A stretch of 64,000 bases of DNA, taken from contig OZ247578.1 in the NCBI GenBank assembly GCA_965233795.1, positions 313,878-377,877 on the forward strand. Reading direction: 5' to 3'. A model generated the notes under the pieces. It did not search any database and had not been told where the DNA came from. It was given only the letters and a program-made list of their open reading frames with translations. This document shows, piece by piece, positions 7,859 to 50,746 of this stretch. A program made the translations under genes and the position numbers. This DNA comes from an uncultured Polaribacter sp. (lineage in GTDB: Bacteria > Bacteroidota > Bacteroidia > Flavobacteriales > Flavobacteriaceae). Position 1 is the stretch's first letter; each line of letters begins with the position of its first letter.

Positions 7859-8611
7859 TTACTTTTTATCAATAATCGTAGCACTCGCTTGTGCTGTTGG
7901 AAAAACTACTAAATCTTCAATATTTACATGATAAGGTCTTGTAATTACAAAATGAATGATATCGGCAATATCTTCGGCAAGTAGAGGTTGGTATCCTTGA
8001 TAAGGAATTTTTGATTTCTCCTCATCTCCTTTAAATCTAACTTCTGAAAAAGCAGTATGTACCATTCCCGGGTGAATTCCAGCAACGCGAACTCCATGCT
8101 TATTCATATCCATTCGCATGGCTTTATTCAATGCATTTACAGCCGATTTTGTGGCACAATACACATTTCCATTCGGATAGACTTCTTTACCAGCAGTAGA
8201 GCCAATATTTACAATAAAGCCGCTATTTCTTGCAACCATTTGCGGAATAATCGCTTTAGAAACATAGAGCAATCCTTTTATATTGCTATCAATCATGGCA
8301 TCCCAGTCGTCTAAACTTCCATTTTGAATGGGGTCTAAACCGTGTGCATTTCCCGCATTATTAATGAGAATATCAATGTGTTGAAAGTCTTTTGGTAGGC
8401 TGTCAATTGCTTTTTGAACCTCCTCTCTTTTTCCTACATCAAAAGTTAAAATAGTTACTTCTACCAAAGAACTTAATGCTGCTTGAAGCGCTTTTAATTT
8501 TGCTGTTTTTCTTCCACAAAGAATCAATCGAATACCATTCTTTGCAAATAGTTTTGCGGTGGCTTCTCCAATTCCTGATGTTGCGCCTGTGATGAATGCG
8601 GTAGTTTTCAT
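7859..8611 (-). CDS. SDR-family NAD(P)-dependent oxidoreductase (YdfG-like)
   Basis: 250 aa. TGATSGIGEA glycine-rich motif, NNAG, YCATK (YxxxK). Confidence 0.88.
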   Translation of the reverse strand: MKTTAFITGATSGIGEATAKLFAKNGIRLILCGRKTAKLKALQAALSSLVEVTILTFDVGKREEVQKAIDSLPKDFQHIDILINNAGNAHGLDPIQNGSLDDWDAMIDSNIKGLLYVSKAIIPQMVARNSGFIVNIGSTAGKEVYPNGNVYCATKSAVNALNKAMRMDMNKHGVRVAGIHPGMVHTAFSEVRFKGDEEKSKIPYQGYQPLLAEDIADIIHFVITRPYHVNIEDLVVFPTAQASATIIDKK

Positions 8612-8665: not shown

Positions 8666-9763
8666 TTATGAAACCTTCGTCATTTTCCCTTTCTGTTTCG
8701 CTTCTTCGTTACGTTCAATGGTATGATCGGGTCGTGTCCATTTGGGTTTTTCTCCCAACGATTCGTATTTCGAGTTTTTAGCTTCTACTGTTTCTGGTTG
8801 CGATTTTTTTACAAAAGGTTTTTGTGGGTTTAACCCTAATAATTCAAACATTTTCATGTCTTCATTAACATCTGGATTAGGAGTAGTTAACAATTTATCC
8901 CCCGCAAAAATAGAATTTGCTCCCGCAAAAAAGCATAGGGCTTGTCCTTCTCTACTCATATCTGTTCTTCCCGCAGATAAACGTACTTGGGTTTGAGGCA
9001 TTACAATACGCGTGGTAGCTACCATACGAATCATATCCCAAATAGCTACAGGTTTTTGATCTTCTAAAGGAGTTCCATCAACCGCTACTAAGGCGTTGAT
9101 AGGCACAGATTCGGGTTGTGGATTTAATGTTGCTAGCGCTACTAACATGCCTGCTCTGTCTTCCGCTTTTTCTCCCATACCAATAATTCCGCCAGAACAA
9201 ACCGTTACATTGGTTTTTCTAACATTGTCAATCGTATCCAAACGGTCTTGATAACCTCTGGTAGAAATCACTTCTTTATAATATTCTTCTGAGGAGTCTA
9301 GATTGTGATTATATGCGTACAGACCCGCTTCTGCCAGACGTTGCGCCTGATTTTCGGTAATCATTCCCAAAGTACAGCAAACTTCCATGTCGAGCTTATT
9401 AATGGTTCTCACCATTTCTAAAACTTGGTCAAATTCTGGCCCGTCTTTTACGTTTCTCCAAGCTGCACCCATACAAACTCTAGAGCTTCCTGAAGCTTTT
9501 GCACGTAAGGCTTGCGCTTTTACATGCGGAACCGTCATTAAATCATTCCCTTCGATATCTGTATGATATCTTGCTGCTTGCGGACAATAGCCGCAATCTT
9601 CTGGGCAACCACCTGTTTTAATAGAAAGTAAAGTAGAAACCTGAACCGTATTTGGGTCGTGGTGTTTTCTATGAATGGTAGCTGCTTCGTATAGCAATTC
9701 CATTAAGGGTTTGTTATAGATGGCTAGAATCTCTTCTTGTGTCCAGTTATGTTTTGCGCTCAT
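8666..9763 (-). CDS. bioB: Biotin synthase BioB (radical SAM)
   Basis: 365 aa. CPEDCGYCPQ radical-SAM cluster motif and full-length BioB-like sequence, with a ~40-aa lysine-rich C-terminal tail. Confidence 0.97.
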   Translation of the reverse strand: MSAKHNWTQEEILAIYNKPLMELLYEAATIHRKHHDPNTVQVSTLLSIKTGGCPEDCGYCPQAARYHTDIEGNDLMTVPHVKAQALRAKASGSSRVCMGAAWRNVKDGPEFDQVLEMVRTINKLDMEVCCTLGMITENQAQRLAEAGLYAYNHNLDSSEEYYKEVISTRGYQDRLDTIDNVRKTNVTVCSGGIIGMGEKAEDRAGMLVALATLNPQPESVPINALVAVDGTPLEDQKPVAIWDMIRMVATTRIVMPQTQVRLSAGRTDMSREGQALCFFAGANSIFAGDKLLTTPNPDVNEDMKMFELLGLNPQKPFVKKSQPETVEAKNSKYESLGEKPKWTRPDHTIERNEEAKQKGKMTKVS

Positions 9764-9820: not shown

Positions 9821-10918
9821 TTAATTCACCAATTCTCTTCCCAATTGTGCTAAAAAAGGAATGCCAATGGTTTCATATTCATAGATACCATCGTTATATA
9901 TTTGATTTTTATTTACATGAATCGTAGCAGTAATAATATATTTTTTATTGGATTTTTTGTTGATGATATATGCACAGTCGGTTAAATAACCATAAGCATA
10001 ACCTACTTTATTGAAGATTTCTATATGATTGGGCATCGACTCTTTAGTATCACCAAACAAAAAGAATTTTACGTAACTATCATAATACTCATCCACATTA
10101 TAACCTACTTCTTTGGGGAGTATTTTCATGGTGTTGATTAGAAACTCTCGATCTTCTTTAGACAAATGAAATTGTTGTTTTTTAGCATAAAGTTGTGGGA
10201 AAAATATACGCTTCATCATTTCATGTAAGGAAGTAAGAGGCAAATAATTTTTTTTAGAGAAGTCCATGGGCGTTTTTACCAAGCTATCACCAACGGTATA
10301 TCCAATGCCTTTTTGTAAACGGTTTAGTTTTAGAGATTGTATGGAATCATTTACAACAGATTTGGTTTCATAAATGAGGCTATCATTTTTATAAAATGTG
10401 AGTTTTTTAGTTTTTAAAGCCCCTGAATTTGCAACAGACAATCTGTGTGAGATTCGAGCAGAAATTCCTTTATGATGAAGCAACCTATTGATATCGTCTT
10501 TTCCTATATATTCAAACAAACGATTATAAGCATCGTTATCGCTTACGGCAAAAATCTTTTTAATTTCTTTAGCGATGGTTGTTTTTATAGAATCGCCTTC
10601 CACTAAAAACAGTGTATTTCTATCAATCTTTTTTTGTTGATTCATTTTTTCTAACGCTAAAATGGCAATCGGAAATTTTACAGAACTCGCAGGATAAAAA
10701 TAGTTGCTATCATTTACTTGAAAAGAAGCCTCTTTAAAAGAAATCGTATTGTTTTTTTCTAGTACTTCAGAGAATAGTATTTGTATTTCATGTTGTTGAA
10801 TCTTGTCTACAACTGTTTTTATTTTAGGATGTTTAGAGCTTAAAGCGTTTTCTAAATCGTTTTTTTTAGAGCAACTTAAAAGAAGTAATAGCAGGCTTAG
10901 AGAAAGGTTTTTTATCAT
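9821..10918 (-). CDS. Exported class A beta-lactamase-fold serine hydrolase lipoprotein
   Basis: 365 aa. Lipobox LLLLLLSCSKK. SxxK (ASSVKF), SDN (VSDNDAYN) and KxG (NKVGYAYG) motifs occur in class A order. Confidence 0.68.
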   Translation of the reverse strand: MIKNLSLSLLLLLLSCSKKNDLENALSSKHPKIKTVVDKIQQHEIQILFSEVLEKNNTISFKEASFQVNDSNYFYPASSVKFPIAILALEKMNQQKKIDRNTLFLVEGDSIKTTIAKEIKKIFAVSDNDAYNRLFEYIGKDDINRLLHHKGISARISHRLSVANSGALKTKKLTFYKNDSLIYETKSVVNDSIQSLKLNRLQKGIGYTVGDSLVKTPMDFSKKNYLPLTSLHEMMKRIFFPQLYAKKQQFHLSKEDREFLINTMKILPKEVGYNVDEYYDSYVKFFLFGDTKESMPNHIEIFNKVGYAYGYLTDCAYIINKKSNKKYIITATIHVNKNQIYNDGIYEYETIGIPFLAQLGRELVN

Positions 10919-10960: not shown

Positions 10961-12139
10961 TTATTTTTCAATGAGTATTGATACCGCATTTCCACCAAAA
11001 CCAACAGCATTTACCAATATTTTTTTAAGTTCTTTGGGTGGTGATTGTTTTTCCGCAAAAGGAACTGGAATTACTTCTTGGTATTTTAGCATGAGTAAGG
11101 CTAATTCTAAACTTAACATTCCTGAAGTACCAAACGTATGTCCTAATTTCCATTTGTTAGTAGTTAAAAAAGGAATTTTGTTAAAAAACACTTTTTGAAT
11201 GGCATTATATTCCGAAAAATCTCCTTTTAACGTACCTGGTGCGTGCATCACAATAGCATCAATTTCATCAGGAGAAGTGAATCCCAAAGCCATTTTCATG
11301 GATCTTTGAAAACATTGAGCTTCGGTAGAAATGGAAGTATGATGTTCTAAAATTTCTGTTGCATAACCTATTCCTGTAATAAGCGCTAATCTGTTTTGTT
11401 GTATGCCTTTTTCTAAACAGCTTACTGCAGCACCTTCACCAAGAACCATGGTGTTTTTTTTCTTTTTGAAATCGAGTGCGCGACAAGGGTACGATACTTC
11501 ATCGCATTCATGGGATACTTCATTGCATTCAGTATAAACTTTTAGGGCTTGCATTTGTGCGATGGTAAAATCAGTTAAAGGCGCTTCACTTCCGCCAACT
11601 AAAAATTTATCGGAGAGTCCTGCTTGTATCCAAGCAATACCATTTAAAACAGCATGTAAGGCGGTAGAGCAGGTGATAGAATGCGAAATTTCTGGACCTT
11701 TTGTTTGTAAATCATGCGCAACCCAAGAAGAAATATTTCCCAAAGTAGTAGTTGGTGAACTTAAAATAGCGGTTTTTTGAGTTTTTAAAAAAGCAGTGTG
11801 GTGCTTTTCAAAAAGAGCTGTAGCGCCTCTTGAAGATCCTATGTTAATTCCAAAATCGTCACCTACTTTCCAACCCGCTTTTAAACAAGCCTTTCTAGCT
11901 ACTAAAATTGCATATAAAACGGTGTTGTCTAAGTTTTTGTATTTTAAAGATGCTGTTTTTAAAGCAACGATTTCTTTTTGATCTTCTTCGGATATTTTTG
12001 CTACCCAAGCAGTAAAATTTTCAAATGCTGTTTTAGAAATAGAATGTTGCTTGCTTTTATATCTTTTCCAAATAGAGGTTTCATTATTTCCTAAAGCGGA
12101 AATAGAAGATATGGCGGTAATGGAAATAGGTTGAAACAA
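10961..12139 (-). CDS. Beta-ketoacyl synthase (KAS I/II-like, Cys-His-His triad) embedded in the biotin cluster
   Basis: 392 aa. Active-site Cys SITCSTALHAV, His in VMHAPGT, Lys/His in NKWKLGHTFGTSG, C-terminal GFGGNA. Confidence 0.85.
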   Translation of the reverse strand: MFQPISITAISSISALGNNETSIWKRYKSKQHSISKTAFENFTAWVAKISEEDQKEIVALKTASLKYKNLDNTVLYAILVARKACLKAGWKVGDDFGINIGSSRGATALFEKHHTAFLKTQKTAILSSPTTTLGNISSWVAHDLQTKGPEISHSITCSTALHAVLNGIAWIQAGLSDKFLVGGSEAPLTDFTIAQMQALKVYTECNEVSHECDEVSYPCRALDFKKKKNTMVLGEGAAVSCLEKGIQQNRLALITGIGYATEILEHHTSISTEAQCFQRSMKMALGFTSPDEIDAIVMHAPGTLKGDFSEYNAIQKVFFNKIPFLTTNKWKLGHTFGTSGMLSLELALLMLKYQEVIPVPFAEKQSPPKELKKILVNAVGFGGNAVSILIEK

Positions 12140-12198: not shown

Positions 12199-12225
12199 TT
12201 TGACAACTTTTCAAAAGTTGTCAAA
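12199..12225. repeat. Family D palindrome TTTGACAACTTTTCAAAAGTTGTCAAA (copy 1)
   Basis: Read directly. It overlaps the bioA stop codon (12221-12223). A second copy lies at 23533-23560. Confidence 0.88.
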
Positions 12226-13486
12226 CTTCTTCTAACACTTGCTCAATAGCGGTATACACTTTTTCCAATTGTTCAGGTGTAATTACATACGGAGCTTGAA
12301 TATAAATAGTATTTCCTAGCGGTCGTAAAAACACACCTTTATTCATAAAAAAATCGAACAATTGATCGCGTAAATTCCCATATCGTTCCATTTGGACATC
12401 CAAATCTAGGGCATAAATTATCCCTTTTTGCCGAGTAGATTTTACTTTGGGATGGTTTTGAATTCGTTTATCAAAGGCTTCATGCGAAGCTACAATCTGC
12501 TGTATGTTTTCTTGTATTTCTGATGAAGTCAACAATTCAATTCCTGCCAAAGCTGCCGTACATGCCAACGGGTTCGCAGAATAGGTATGTCCGTGAAACA
12601 AACCTTTTTTGATATCATCGCTATAAAAAGCATCATAAATTTCTTGAGAGCAACTTGTAATTGCCATGGGTAAAAGCCCTGCGGTTAGTGCCTTGCTTAA
12701 ACAAATAATATCAGGTTTTTCATGCATGTATTCTGAAGCAAAGTATTTTCCTGTCTTTCCAAATCCTGTCATTACCTCATCGGCAACTGTAATAATTTGA
12801 TGTTGTTTAAAAAAGGATAAAATACGATCTAAGCCTTCGACGTTGTGCATTTTCATAGCGGCTGCACCTTGTACCAAAGGCTCGTAGACAAATCCCGCTA
12901 TTTCATATATTTTTACAAGTATTTCTAGTTGTTGTAAAATTGCATCGTGGTTTTCTCCATTAGGAGTAGGAATTCGTTGTACGTCTAAGAAAAAATCTTC
13001 AAACGGACCGTTGTATACCGATAAGCCAGAAACACTCATCGCACCAAAAGTATCGCCATGAAAACCGTCTTCAAAAGCGACTAACGTGCTTCTTTTTTCA
13101 CCTTTATTAAAATGATATTGCAGCGCCATTTTAATTCCAATTTCCACAGCAGAAGAACCATTGTCTGAAAAGAAAATCTTTTGCTGATTTTCAGGTAAAA
13201 TTTCAATGAGTTTTTCTGATAATTCAATAGCAGGTTGGTGTGTAAACCCACTAAAAACTACCTGATCTAATTGTTGCATTTGGTTAGAAACTCTATTTGT
13301 GATGTACTCATTACAATGTCCGTACATAGCAGTATACCACGAAGCAATGGCATCAATATATTCATTGCCATTTTCATCTGTTAAAATACATCCTTTTGCT
13401 CTGATAATTGCCAGTGTTTCAGGATGTGTTTTATGTTGCGTTAGTGGATGCCAAAGGTGTTTTTTATCGCGTTCTTGTAGCATCAT
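12221..13486 (-). CDS. bioA: Adenosylmethionine-8-amino-7-oxononanoate aminotransferase BioA
   Basis: 421 aa. Class III aminotransferase with LWHPLTQ, ADEVMTGFGKTGK and LSKALTAG (PLP Lys). Confidence 0.95.
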   Translation of the reverse strand: MMLQERDKKHLWHPLTQHKTHPETLAIIRAKGCILTDENGNEYIDAIASWYTAMYGHCNEYITNRVSNQMQQLDQVVFSGFTHQPAIELSEKLIEILPENQQKIFFSDNGSSAVEIGIKMALQYHFNKGEKRSTLVAFEDGFHGDTFGAMSVSGLSVYNGPFEDFFLDVQRIPTPNGENHDAILQQLEILVKIYEIAGFVYEPLVQGAAAMKMHNVEGLDRILSFFKQHQIITVADEVMTGFGKTGKYFASEYMHEKPDIICLSKALTAGLLPMAITSCSQEIYDAFYSDDIKKGLFHGHTYSANPLACTAALAGIELLTSSEIQENIQQIVASHEAFDKRIQNHPKVKSTRQKGIIYALDLDVQMERYGNLRDQLFDFFMNKGVFLRPLGNTIYIQAPYVITPEQLEKVYTAIEQVLEEV

Positions 13487-14097
13487 ACTATTTGTTGAAA
13501 TTTTTCTGCATAATCTTTCACTACATTTTTATCAAAATAAGGTTCTTCATCTATACGTCCAAGAACAGGTACACCGGTCATTTTTTTGATGATTTCTTCT
13601 GTAGAAGGGTGCTCATTTCCACTAAAAATAAGCGCAACATCAAACCCTTTTTCTTGTAATAATTTTACGGTTAGTAGTGTGTGATTGATGCTCCCCAAAT
13701 AGTGACGAGATACTACAATTACGGTATAATCTGGAGGGATGATGTCTAAAATAGTATCCGTATCGTTTAAAGGAACTAAGAGTCCTCCAGCACCTTCAAC
13801 AACTAAATGATTGTTTGTTTTAGGAGGCGTGATTTTAGTCAATTCAATGTCAATATTATCAATTGCAGCAGCGGCATGCGGACTCATAGGTGTTTGCAAA
13901 GCATAACTATTTTTATGAAATACCGATTTGGAATTAGAAATCAATTTTTCAACTTTATAGGTATCAGAATTATCCAAATCGCCTGCTTGTATAGGTTTCC
14001 AATAATCGGCTTCTAAAGCTTCTACTAAAATAGCCGAAACAATGGTTTTTCCTACTTCGGTAGAAATGCCAGTAATGAAGTATTTTTTAGAGTTCAT
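13483..14097 (-). CDS. bioD: Dethiobiotin synthase BioD
   Basis: 204 aa. P-loop-like GISTEVGKT and VVEGAGGLLVP. Overlaps the bioA start by 4 nt (ATGA). Confidence 0.93.
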   Translation of the reverse strand: MNSKKYFITGISTEVGKTIVSAILVEALEADYWKPIQAGDLDNSDTYKVEKLISNSKSVFHKNSYALQTPMSPHAAAAIDNIDIELTKITPPKTNNHLVVEGAGGLLVPLNDTDTILDIIPPDYTVIVVSRHYLGSINHTLLTVKLLQEKGFDVALIFSGNEHPSTEEIIKKMTGVPVLGRIDEEPYFDKNVVKDYAEKFQQIV

Positions 14098-14150: not shown

Positions 14151-14429
14151 TTAGTAATCTAAGGTTTTTAATCTAGGGTTTAATTTCTTAATTAAATTCA
14201 ATTTCCATTCTTTGTGCCAATTTTTTAATTGTTTTTCTCTTGCAATTGCTAGATTAATATCTAAAAATTCTTCAAAATAGATCAAATCTTTTACATTATA
14301 TTTTTTGGTAAATAAAGAAGCAGTTTCTTCATAATGCTCATATAATCTTTTTTCTAAATTGGCTGTCACTCCAATATAAAAGGTTGTTCTATATTTATTT
14401 GTCAATATATAGATATAGCTCTTTTTCAT
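14151..14429 (-). CDS. GIY-YIG nuclease family protein (small stand-alone URI domain)
   Basis: 92 aa. YIYILTN...TFYIGVTANLEKRLYEH...AREKQLKNW matches the GIY-YIG / R / E / N motif order. Confidence 0.9.
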   Translation of the reverse strand: MKKSYIYILTNKYRTTFYIGVTANLEKRLYEHYEETASLFTKKYNVKDLIYFEEFLDINLAIAREKQLKNWHKEWKLNLIKKLNPRLKTLDY

Positions 14430-14479: not shown

Positions 14480-15628
14480 TTATTGATCTTTCACAAAAGT
14501 ACACAACAACTCCAAAACAAGTGTAATTTCTTCCTTAGAATTGTAATTGTGTAAACAAAAGCGCAACCGTTCTTCACCTTTAGAAACGGTAGGAGATAGA
14601 ATAGGTTTTATTTCGAATCCTTTTTCTTGTAAGGTTTTAGCAATCTGATGTATATTTTTCTCATTGGGAATAATACAACAATGAATTGCAGAGGTGCTTT
14701 TTATAAAAAAAGAAGCTAACTTCAATCGGTTTATTTCTTCATTAAAAAAGGCAATGTTCTCTTGCAATTGTTTTTGATTAGAAGTATTTTCGAGCGTTTT
14801 ATACCCCATTTTTATCGTAGCTAAAGCGTGTGGAGGAAGTGCTGTTGTGTAGATAAAACTTCTAGAAAAATTGACTAAATAATTTTTTAGATTTTTACTC
14901 CCTAAAATAGCAGCACCATGGCATCCTAATGCTTTCCCGAAAGTTACAATTCTTGCAAAAACACTATTTTCTATACCTAATGTTTGTATTTTTCCACAGC
15001 CTTGTTTTCCAAAAACACCTAAGGAATGCGCTTCGTCTACCACAAAATGTGCTCGGTATTTTTCACAAAGTTTTGCCATAGCAAGTATATCGGGCGTATC
15101 TCCATCCATAGAAAATACGGCTTCTGTAACTACATAGATTTCATTTTTGTCATGCTGAACTCGTTTCAGCATCTCATTCAAATTGTTTACATCATTGTGC
15201 TGAAATTTATACCCTTTTGCTTTGCATAACTGAATGCCGTCTCTAATAGAAGCGTGGATAAATTCGTCATACAAAACAATATCTCCACGTTGTGGAATGG
15301 CTCCAAAAAAACCCAAATTGGCATTGTACCCTGAGTTAAAAATTAGAGCGGCTTCGGATTGATGAAATGTACAAATGTCTTTTTCAACTTCCTCGTACAA
15401 ATCAGAATTTCCAGAAAGCAATCGAGATCCTGTTGCCCCATTCGCAATAAGATGGTTGTTTTTTAGGAATTGATGTACTTTCTCAAAAATTGCAGTAGAT
15501 TTTGCAAAACCCAAATAATCATTCGAAGAAAAGTCGATAGTATTTAAAGGCTTTTGTAAAGAACGAAAAGCATGGTCAACTTTTCGTTTTTCTAATTTTT
15601 CTAAGAGTTTTTTTGGAAAGTGCTCCAT
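14480..15628 (-). CDS. bioF: 8-amino-7-oxononanoate synthase BioF
   Basis: 382 aa. VTEAVFSMDGD, VDEAHSLG, TFGKALG (PLP Lys). Confidence 0.93.
   Translation of the reverse strand: MEHFPKKLLEKLEKRKVDHAFRSLQKPLNTIDFSSNDYLGFAKSTAIFEKVHQFLKNNHLIANGATGSRLLSGNSDLYEEVEKDICTFHQSEAALIFNSGYNANLGFFGAIPQRGDIVLYDEFIHASIRDGIQLCKAKGYKFQHNDVNNLNEMLKRVQHDKNEIYVVTEAVFSMDGDTPDILAMAKLCEKYRAHFVVDEAHSLGVFGKQGCGKIQTLGIENSVFARIVTFGKALGCHGAAILGSKNLKNYLVNFSRSFIYTTALPPHALATIKMGYKTLENTSNQKQLQENIAFFNEEINRLKLASFFIKSTSAIHCCIIPNEKNIHQIAKTLQEKGFEIKPILSPTVSKGEERLRFCLHNYNSKEEITLVLELLCTFVKDQ
15149..15173. repeat. Family B hairpin repeat GTCATGCTGAACTCGTTTCAGCATC located inside the bioF coding sequence
   Basis: Read directly. 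On the minus strand it is translated in frame as MLKRVQHD within ...NNLNEMLKRVQHDKNEIYVVTE... Confidence 0.88.
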
Positions 15629-15700
15629 CTTTACAAAAATACAAAATGTTCCATACAGTAATCATTGTCCGTTTGTATCTTTACACTTTTAAAACAGGTC

Positions 15701-16057
15701 ATGCAAAAAAACACAGATTTAAAAGAGAAATGGGATTTTTTAGTAGCCAAACTAACAGCAGATTTTGCAGACGGTGAAGAATTAAATGTAGATGGAATTA
15801 TCTATTTGATTGGTGTTCAGGAATTAGGACAAGGGCATAGGCGCTTTAAAAAAGATGAAAAAGTAAACTTAATGCACATTGCCATTTGTAAGCTCTTAGA
15901 ACCTTATGGTTATTATGAGTTTGATTATTTTGATGAAGACGGTTGGCCACATTACAAAGTACTTACAGAATTGCCCAATCTAAAAGCAGGCGAACAAACG
16001 GTATTAATGAAAGAAGCGATTGTGAGTTATTTTGACGTTATTGACTTTTTTAAGTAA
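15701..16057 (+). CDS. Hypothetical protein (118 aa from the first ATG)
   Basis: The ORF-track frame 15665-16057 begins at TTG. The first ATG, at 15701, gives MQKNTDLKEKWDF... No recognisable motifs. Confidence 0.55.
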   Translation: MQKNTDLKEKWDFLVAKLTADFADGEELNVDGIIYLIGVQELGQGHRRFKKDEKVNLMHIAICKLLEPYGYYEFDYFDEDGWPHYKVLTELPNLKAGEQTVLMKEAIVSYFDVIDFFK

Positions 16058-49567: not shown

Positions 49568-50746
49568 ATGAAACCAGATGTATTCCAAGCCCCAGATTAT
49601 TATCAGATAGATGATTTACTTTCTGAAGAGCATAAATTAGTAAGAGATGCTTCTCGTGAGTGGGTAAAACGTGCTGTCTCTCCAATCATTGAAGATTATG
49701 CACAACGTGCAGCCTTTCCTGAACAAATTATTGGTGGTTTGGCAGAAATTGGCGCTTTTGGACCTTATATTCCTGAGGAATATGGCGGTGCAGGATTAGA
49801 TCAAATTTCTTACGGACTAATTATGCAAGAGATTGAACGTGGAGATTCTGGTGTTCGTTCTACGGCTTCTGTACAATCTTCTTTAGTGATGTATCCTATT
49901 TACAAATATGGAAATGAAGCACAACGTAAAAAATATTTGCCGAAACTGGCTTCTGGAGAGTGGATGGGTTGTTTTGGATTAACAGAGCCTAATCATGGTT
50001 CTAATCCTGGCGGAATGGAGACCAAATTTAAAGATATGGGCGACCATTATTTGTTAAATGGTGCTAAAATGTGGATTTCCAACGCGCCTTTTGCACAAGT
50101 TGCTGTGGTATGGGCAAAAGATGAAAATAATCGAATTCACGGATTGATTGTAGAGCGGGGAATGGAAGGTTTTTCTACACCAGAAACGCATAATAAATGG
50201 TCTTTAAGAGCTTCTTCTACTGGAGAATTAACTTTTGATAATGTAAAAGTGCCTAAAGAAAATTTATTACCAAATAAATCTGGATTAGGCGCCCCTTTAG
50301 GGTGTTTAGATTCAGCAAGATACGGAATTGCTTGGGGTGCTATTGGCGCTGCAATGGATTGTTATGATACTGCTTTGCGATACAGTAAAGAACGCATGCA
50401 ATTTGGCAAGCCCATTGGGCAGTTTCAATTACAACAAAAAAAGTTAGCAGAAATGATTACCGAAATTACCAAAGCACAATTATTGGCTTGGCGTTTGGGG
50501 GTTTTACGAAATGAAGACAAAGCAACTTCTGCACAAATTTCTATGGCAAAAAGAAATAATGTAGAAATGGCAATTAATATTGCTAGAGAAGCTAGGCAAA
50601 TGTTAGGCGGTATGGGAATTTCTGGTGAATATTCCATCATGCGCCATTCTATGAATTTAGAAAGCGTAATTACCTATGAAGGAACCCATGACATTCATTT
50701 GCTCATCACAGGATTGGATATTACAGGATTGAATGCGTTTAAATAG
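49568..50746 (+). CDS. gcdH: Acyl-CoA dehydrogenase, glutaryl-CoA dehydrogenase-like
   Basis: 392 aa. GCFGLTEPNHGSNPGGMETK, YEGTHDIHLL C-terminal motif. Confidence 0.88.
   Translation: MKPDVFQAPDYYQIDDLLSEEHKLVRDASREWVKRAVSPIIEDYAQRAAFPEQIIGGLAEIGAFGPYIPEEYGGAGLDQISYGLIMQEIERGDSGVRSTASVQSSLVMYPIYKYGNEAQRKKYLPKLASGEWMGCFGLTEPNHGSNPGGMETKFKDMGDHYLLNGAKMWISNAPFAQVAVVWAKDENNRIHGLIVERGMEGFSTPETHNKWSLRASSTGELTFDNVKVPKENLLPNKSGLGAPLGCLDSARYGIAWGAIGAAMDCYDTALRYSKERMQFGKPIGQFQLQQKKLAEMITEITKAQLLAWRLGVLRNEDKATSAQISMAKRNNVEMAINIAREARQMLGGMGISGEYSIMRHSMNLESVITYEGTHDIHLLITGLDITGLNAFK

Follow-up and report, generated by a model that had tools for sequence, protein, structure and literature searches.

A conserved ketosynthase of the flavobacterial biotin operon, probably the missing pimelate-arm enzyme

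A stretch of 64 kb from an uncultured Polaribacter sp. (contig OZ247578.1; hereafter the window, to which positions refer unless stated otherwise) was taken from a complete, single-contig genome of 2.61 Mb, and its minus strand carries a biotin operon that contains, in addition to recognised genes of biotin synthesis, a gene for a ketoacyl-acyl carrier protein (ACP) synthase, here called KAS. The minus-strand order is bioF, a GIY-YIG open reading frame (ORF), bioD, bioA, KAS, a beta-lactamase-like lipoprotein gene, bioB and a gene for a short-chain dehydrogenase/reductase (SDR), with spacers of 42–81 nt and a 4-nt overlap between bioD and bioA (Table 1). A preliminary description of this DNA gave the same gene order but left out the two inserted genes (GIY-YIG and beta-lactamase-like), and proposed that KAS replaces the genes that otherwise supply the pimelate moiety of biotin. 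The assignment of bioF is also backed by synteny: every relative that was looked at keeps it together with bioD and bioA.

The KAS protein matches both Pfam ketoacyl-synthase domains (N-terminal, PF00109, E = 2e-18; C-terminal, PF02801, E = 7.6e-13) and contains the motifs SITC157STALH, MH299APGT and K329LGH334TFGTSG together with a GFGG gate at residues 380–383; the intact Cys-His-His triad and the motifs previously quoted for this 392-aa ORF are thus present. Cys157, His299, Lys329, His334 and the GFGG gate align onto the catalytic residues of solved FabF structures, and C157, H299, H334, K329 and G380-F381-G382-G383 are invariant across 19 sequences of 33–67% identity, as is the set required for decarboxylation (H299, H334, K329 and F381). 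In an AlphaFold2 (AF2) model (predicted local distance difference test, pLDDT, 89.6; predicted template modelling score, pTM, 0.92), the top PDB folds are FabF structures (template modelling score, TM, 0.85–0.88, at 20–24% identity), with FabB at 0.82. KAS is a member of the KAS I/II superfamily with a KAS II fold, built as a two-domain thiolase fold. One surface loop of the protein is of hypervariable length, with 0 to more than 60 extra residues in relatives; in the window a 21-nt unit encoding ECNEVSH/ECDEVSY is repeated there in tandem, about 2.2 times, without disturbing the reading frame, the closest relative (75% identity) has three heptads there, and the pLDDT of the model falls below 50 at residues 208–214 of the duplicated loop.

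Despite sharing with FabF its fold, its triad and the equivalents of Lys335, the GFGG/F400 gate and Asp311/Glu314, KAS is not FabF proper. On the FabF equivalog model TIGR03150 it reaches 132 bits against a cut-off of 493.75, while the housekeeping FabF of the same genome, to which KAS is 27% identical, scores 599 bits and is encoded just downstream of acpP, the sole canonical acpP that a genome-wide motif screen recovered. KAS stays below the cut-off of every NCBIfam model. The differences concern linkage, to the biotin operon instead of acpP, and the acyl pocket. Residue R104 aligns without gaps with Ile108 of the E. coli FabF back gate and M196 aligns with Phe202, and KAS has SPxTT in the loop where FabF has SPFF. 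The hydrophobic Ile108/Phe202 back gate of FabF proper is therefore not kept; in FabF these two residues gate the acyl pocket at C7–C8 of the bound acyl chain, and the I108F substitution limits elongation to C6–C8 (PMC9006962). Arginine occupies position 104 in all 150 representative clusters (50% identity), always within [ST][SA]R, and the non-catalytic invariants among the 19 aligned sequences are S102, R104, G105, T107, E111, S128, P129, T132, G134 and S154. The AF2 model is among its least confident at residues 129–132, within the SPxTT loop.

A pocket of this kind has a counterpart in BioZ, the condensing enzyme of alpha-proteobacterial biotin operons, where S84, R147 and S287 are proposed to neutralise the free carboxylate of glutaryl-CoA (PMC8024396). 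As judged from alignment, the shortened, Ser/Arg/Thr-lined KAS II pocket would be an obvious analogue of that carboxylate site, with S102, S103, R104 and Thr residues in the role of the three BioZ residues, and we infer that Arg104 binds the free omega-carboxylate of the substrate.

Table 1 Features of the biotin operon and its surroundings in the 64-kb window
Feature	Position	Strand	Details
Biotin-operon ketosynthase (KAS)	10961-12139	-	392 aa; TTG start; Pfam, alignment and AF2
S102-S103-R104-G105-A106-T107 block (codons)	11819-11836	-	R104 codon 11828-11830; from alignments
S128-P129-x-T131-T132-L-G134-N135 loop (codons)	11735-11758	-	FabF has SPFF/hydrophobic residues there
bioF	14480-15628	-	First gene of operon; TIGR00858 348.6 bits, under strict cut-off of 426
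bioD	13483-14097	-	TIGR00347 118.5 bits, cut-off 83.3
bioA	12221-13486	-	TIGR00508 539 bits, cut-off 405; 81-nt spacer to downstream KAS
bioB	8666-9763	-	TIGR00433 401.5 bits, cut-off 225
GIY-YIG ORF	14151-14429	-	92 aa; between bioF and bioD; lineage-specific, outside pathway
Beta-lactamase-like (PF13354) lipoprotein gene	9821-10918	-	Between KAS and bioB; lineage-specific, outside pathway
YdfG-like SDR gene	7859-8611	-	Unconserved neighbour
Glutaryl-CoA dehydrogenase (GcdH) gene	49568-50746	+	Context only; unlinked to bio operon
21-nt tandem duplication in KAS	11496-11541	-	In-frame
Palindrome in bioA/KAS spacer	12199-12225		12-nt arms; starts at bioA stop codon
ORF divergent from bioF	15665-16057		130 aa

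The distribution of KAS follows that of biotin synthesis. Across 151 genera sampled evenly from the family, the scores of matches to KAS are bimodal (250–875 bits for orthologues, about 75–81 for FabF paralogues), and KAS was identified in 90 genera and bioB in 95, with all 90 KAS-positive genera also encoding bioB. None of the 56 bioB-negative genera has KAS (Fisher p = 5e-36, a value that overstates independence and is descriptive only, because the genes of the operon are passed on or lost together). In a class-wide sample, 19 of 301 genomes have a KAS homologue and all 19 have bioD; one genome of the same genus and one of the same family lack both. Beyond these samples, more than 150 clusters (50% identity) score at least 375 bits on the KAS family profile, each of the best 150 representatives recovered with that profile belongs to the arginine family, and at least 543 species-level genomes in a genome collection were matched.

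Five genomes have bioB but no KAS (G126, G031, G120, G102 and G005). In three of them (G126, G031 and G120), no bioF-bioD-bioA cluster was found in the regions examined, bioA and bioD not having been searched for directly. The bioB gene of G126 (locus L088) and that of G120 (L104) adjoin a gene for a TonB-dependent receptor, with a MocR-type regulator also present in G126; the third bioB-only locus is that of G031 (L102). This genotype fits dethiobiotin salvage (PMC9561691), possibly with a dedicated outer-membrane importer. The assembly of G102 is fragmented, and the contig with bioF-bioD-bioA breaks inside bioA. G005 encodes a different, Bacteroides-like bio cluster that contains bioC and no KAS; with its BioC as query, BioC was found in only this one of the 151 genera.

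Gene order is conserved. The arrangement bioF-bioD-bioA-KAS(-bioB) is kept in 18 of 18 diverse genomes, and bioA is the immediate upstream neighbour of KAS in 77 of 80 named loci (including those of Zobellia, Tenacibaculum, Maribacter, Flavobacterium, Cellulophaga and Arenibacter), the rest being cut by contig ends. Among 12 genomes from other families, 8 still have KAS after bioA, including cases in which bioB now stands at the head of the operon. Pairwise divergence of KAS correlates with that of BioA, BioD and BioF (rho = 0.85, 0.81 and 0.69, respectively, compared with 0.74 for BioA versus BioF), and the mean identity of KAS equals that of BioF. KAS is a genuine member of the biotin operon, and its conservation there is strong. 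A fatty-acid or polyketide-type paralogue could also travel in a bio operon as a hitch-hiker with no role in biotin synthesis; KAS does belong to the general KAS I/II superfamily, and the operon tolerates unrelated insertions such as the GIY-YIG and beta-lactamase-like genes. However, such insertions are sporadic (1–6 of the 80 loci), whereas KAS stays intact beside bioA across more than 150 clusters and several families, is absent from every bio-negative genome and is replaced exactly where BioC or BioE occurs, making a passenger gene very improbable.

Published routes to the pimelate moiety that were searched for were not found in the Polaribacter genome. For BioC, the best whole-genome match to TIGR02072 is UbiE/MenG, whose 56.7 bits fall below the cut-off of 184.95, and Bacteroidota-type BioC queries from relatives have no match anywhere in the genome; a hidden BioC was rejected, as the top methyltransferase matches are UbiE/MenG or generic. 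BioG is likewise not found across the genome (best PF04301 match 15 bits, cut-off 27), in a search that did not take in BioH, BioK, BioJ or BioV; BioH, BioK and BioJ would lack a substrate because the genome has no BioC. The BioW family (PF03744) has no match in the whole genome, and no ORF of at least 250 aa in it carries the FxxGx[RH]xCxG haem motif expected of BioI and other P450 enzymes. Both KAS III genes of the genome are ordinary FabH by TIGR00747 and are unlinked to bio genes; for BioZ no curated model exists. The earlier observation that bioC, bioG, bioW and bioI are missing from the cluster thus holds for the cluster and for the genome as a whole. The preliminary description had also named a BioC/BioH-type pair elsewhere, together with a KAS unlinked to bio genes, as evidence that would speak against its proposal; the genome searches gave no BioC, and KAS is bio-linked.

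The list of known routes in that description omitted two: the Desulfovibrio bio cluster (PMC10102598) and the BioE/BioL route (PMC12704756), which was published in December 2025 for Weeksellaceae, the sister family within the order. Both BioE papers of that year (PMC12704756, PMC12915131) name four routes, and the flavobacterial KAS is not among them. BioE/BioL fills the same gap as that considered here and occupies the same place beside bioF-bioD, but is unrelated to KAS in protein and chemistry, BioE being a ferritin-like diiron oxygenase that cleaves long acyl chains oxidatively. Whole-genome tblastn searches with two synteny-defined BioE proteins (best E = 0.5) and one BioL (a 38-bit partial match only) did not recover this route. 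Other ORFs of the genome with the BioE six-ligand pattern are the R2 subunit of ribonucleotide reductase, a MiaE-like protein and chance matches; the MiaE-like ferritin (genome positions 1445497-1446090) was rejected as a BioE candidate, as it matches MiaE and has no similarity to synteny-defined BioE. BioE is also absent from the 80 KAS loci. Elsewhere in the class, BioE-type ferritin-like genes were observed in two relatives, one a genome of the same order and the other from another family (L105 8381-9004, plus strand; L106 7714-8352, minus strand). Their products (207 and 212 aa, 51% identical) carry the published six-ligand pattern and match no Pfam or NCBIfam model, and the genes adjoin bio genes: the L105 gene lies upstream of bioF, the L106 gene beside bioA, and a MocR regulator gene is divergently oriented.

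With the phyletic profile, the synteny, the mutual exclusion with BioC and the arginine-lined pocket all pointing the same way, KAS is very probably the missing pimelate-arm enzyme of the Flavobacteriaceae and of some other Bacteroidota. The proposal that a dedicated KAS replaces the pimelate-arm genes is strongly supported by these four lines of evidence, and its function is still one that we infer. Considering the two possible ways of priming together, it is quite likely that KAS makes a pimeloyl thioester from a primer with a free omega-carboxylate.

One of the two closest precedents is BioZ, likewise a single condensing enzyme within a bio operon, in organisms without BioC, BioW or BioI and, in the case of BioZ, also without BioH (PMC7645780, PMC8024396). 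In both cases the product would be finished by ordinary FabG, FabZ and FabI, as has been demonstrated for BioZ. The two enzymes are nevertheless non-orthologous: BioZ is a KAS III enzyme of about 330 aa with a FabH fold and a Cys-His-Asn triad, in contrast to the KAS II fold, Cys-His-His triad and 392 aa of KAS, and the BioZ substrate was shown by experiment, that of KAS being a prediction. In the BioZ solution only C7 intermediates pass through the ordinary enzymes of fatty-acid synthesis. By analogy, a cluster without its own ACP, ketoreductase or dehydratase resembles this single-gene solution, and a glutaryl primer is favoured.

By this reasoning, a short omega-carboxy acyl primer with its carboxylate free, most likely glutaryl-CoA or glutaryl-ACP, would load on Cys157, and its distal carboxylate would be held by Arg104 and the surrounding Ser and Thr residues that replace the hydrophobic I108/F202 back gate of FabF. 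Malonyl-ACP would then be decarboxylated by His299, His334 and Lys329, and condensation would give 3-oxopimeloyl-ACP, which housekeeping FabG, FabZ and FabI would reduce to pimeloyl-ACP; BioF, BioA, BioD and BioB of the same operon would complete biotin. In its full form, with KAS as a dedicated biotin condensing enzyme that is primed by glutaryl and yields a pimeloyl thioester without methyl-ester chemistry of the BioC/BioH type, this scheme is offered tentatively, its chances being a little short of even. The genome encodes GcdH, which scores 428 bits to PDB 2eba and 423 to human GCDH (the unrelated acyl-CoA dehydrogenases that come next reach about 249), and glutaryl-CoA is therefore a metabolite of the cell.

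Several observations weigh against this interpretation. The co-occurrence of KAS with bio genes partly reflects their physical linkage, the homologue does not adjoin bio genes in 3 of the 12 non-flavobacteriaceal genomes, the placement of Arg104 in the pocket comes from alignment to FabF, and, as no curated model exists for BioZ, either FabH gene might conceivably act like BioZ. With regard to the primer, 85 of the 90 KAS-positive genera encode GcdH, in favour of glutaryl, but five are without it, three of them represented by genomes that are at least 99% complete, and catabolic glutaryl-CoA is consequently no obligatory source everywhere. GcdH is also near-universal in the family with or without KAS (136 of 151 genera, 80–93% identical across almost all, and far more conserved than the bio genes), leaving a weak association between the two (p = 0.049). 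Co-occurrence with GcdH was accordingly set aside as a way to discriminate glutaryl from malonyl priming; it has little power because GcdH is nearly universal.

In a second scheme, KAS is primed by malonyl-ACP or malonyl-CoA with a free carboxylate and carries out both condensations (C3 to C5 to C7), requiring no catabolic glutaryl-CoA and replacing BioC and BioH by itself. The three essentially complete KAS-positive genomes without GcdH and the weak KAS/GcdH association count in its favour. The long, flexible side chain of an arginine could moreover follow the carboxylate at C3 and at C5. A further point in its favour comes from Desulfovibrio, whose bio-cluster ketosynthase was reportedly predicted in 2004 (Rodionov 2004; also Lin and Cronan 2011). 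In that organism DVU2563, a KAS I/II-type gene, lies in an extended bio cluster (DVU2558-2565) among bioF, bioA, bioD and bioB and without bioC. The genome has neither bioC nor bioH, and a route to pimeloyl-ACP free of methyl esters has been proposed, in which malonyl-ACP would be elongated (PMC10102598). A random barcode transposon-site sequencing (RB-TnSeq) study of 2023 shows that the gene is needed without biotin, on genetic evidence only (PMC10102598).

In contrast to the flavobacterial operon, where KAS stands alone, the Desulfovibrio module depends on a nitroreductase-like gene and includes a dedicated ACP, one FabG-like gene and two of the FabZ-like kind. This dedicated set suggests that ordinary fatty-acid synthesis handles short intermediates with a free carboxylate poorly; neither the window cluster nor any of the 80 named loci was seen to contain a dedicated ACP, FabG-like or FabZ-like gene, and this counts against malonyl priming. 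So does the F400 gate, conserved in KAS, through which an acylated KAS normally excludes a malonyl primer (PMC9006962). Malonyl priming is the main rival, though rather unlikely in our estimation. Slightly less likely is the most far-reaching version, in which a lone KAS II-type enzyme with an arginine-capped polar pocket accepts unprotected malonyl and then glutaryl primers, replacing BioC and BioH by one gene with no methyl ester, no catabolic glutaryl-CoA and no dedicated carrier, and acts as the main source of the biotin chain in marine Flavobacteriia. The setting also differs: the Desulfovibrio module is regarded as confined to a few anaerobic phyla (PMC10102598), whereas the flavobacterial KAS occurs in aerobic Bacteroidota and the genome analysed here has one canonical AcpP. 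A full-text literature search found no paper on the flavobacterial KAS family, but a KAS I/II-type gene in a bio cluster does have a precedent, because Desulfovibrio has a FabF-like KAS with RB-TnSeq support.

Operon linkage in itself proves only a biotin-related role, and KAS might use another primer or an unrecognised partner, for example a masked (esterified or amidated) dicarboxylate, or might transfer an acyl group between CoA and ACP without net condensation. Small conserved genes do occur in many of the operons: a gene for a DUF2007-like protein lies between bioF and bioD in 43 of the 80 related operons (L137 4593-5021; loci of L137-L216). However, both this gene and a Cupin_8 gene described below are absent from the window genome and were rejected as required partners, and no methyltransferase or esterase is linked to KAS in the 80 loci. 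The polar, Arg-lined pocket argues for an anionic rather than a masked substrate, and the invariance of the full decarboxylation machinery (H299, H334, K329 and F381) counts against these readings too. Such a role is improbable on this evidence, and glutaryl-primed condensation is the reading to which we hold, tentatively.

The neighbouring SDR had been suggested as the ketoreductase partner of KAS, which is not borne out: of 18 genomes, one has this SDR gene within 10 kb, and all 80 named loci lack it. As it is not a conserved neighbour, it has no support as a dedicated ketoreductase. The 130-aa ORF divergent from bioF was likewise rejected as a regulator; neither Pfam nor NCBIfam gives a match to it, and it recurs beside bioF in only 1 of the 80 loci.

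Other genes associated with the operon vary among relatives. The DUF2007-like proteins are about 130–140 aa long with C-terminal Cys pairs, and G126, which keeps bioB alone, has the gene as well, some kilobases upstream of bioB. In 37 of the 80 loci (L139 11571-12263) bioB is followed, on its own strand, by a Cupin_8/JmjC-like gene, which also comes after bioB in G126 (L088 11075-11926) and may be accessory to bioB. Of the 80 related loci, 5 have similar GIY-YIG ORFs between bioD and bioA, one of them two copies, as though a small mobile gene had inserted into this operon more than once. A beta-lactamase-like gene between KAS and bioB occurs in 1 of the 80 named loci. Within the 81-nt spacer that precedes KAS in the window, a perfect palindrome (TTTGACAACTTT TCA AAAGTTGTCAAA) is followed by no T-run on the coding strand, and the KAS start is preceded, at a distance of about 20 nt, by a TAcaTTTG motif; a stem-loop and an internal promoter are both possibilities here. 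A comparison of 100 kb with a same-genus genome that lacks the cluster, aimed at the empty site, found the two regions not collinear and gave no BLAST match.

The origin of the pimelate moiety is a variable and still incomplete part of biotin synthesis, to which BioC/BioH, BioI/BioW, BioZ (2020–21) and BioE (2025) were each notable additions. Flavobacteriia are reported among the main oceanic biotin producers, and 69% of them carry bioFADB (PMC9561691). The KAS family would close a gap in flavobacterial genomes, where the published routes tested here were not found, and a role for KAS in the pimelate arm would correct pathway-gap calls when vitamin auxotrophy is predicted in communities of the sea and of fresh water. 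The pocket would, in addition, illustrate the re-tuning of a fatty-acid ketosynthase to hold a carboxylate, which would be useful for dicarboxylic-acid engineering.

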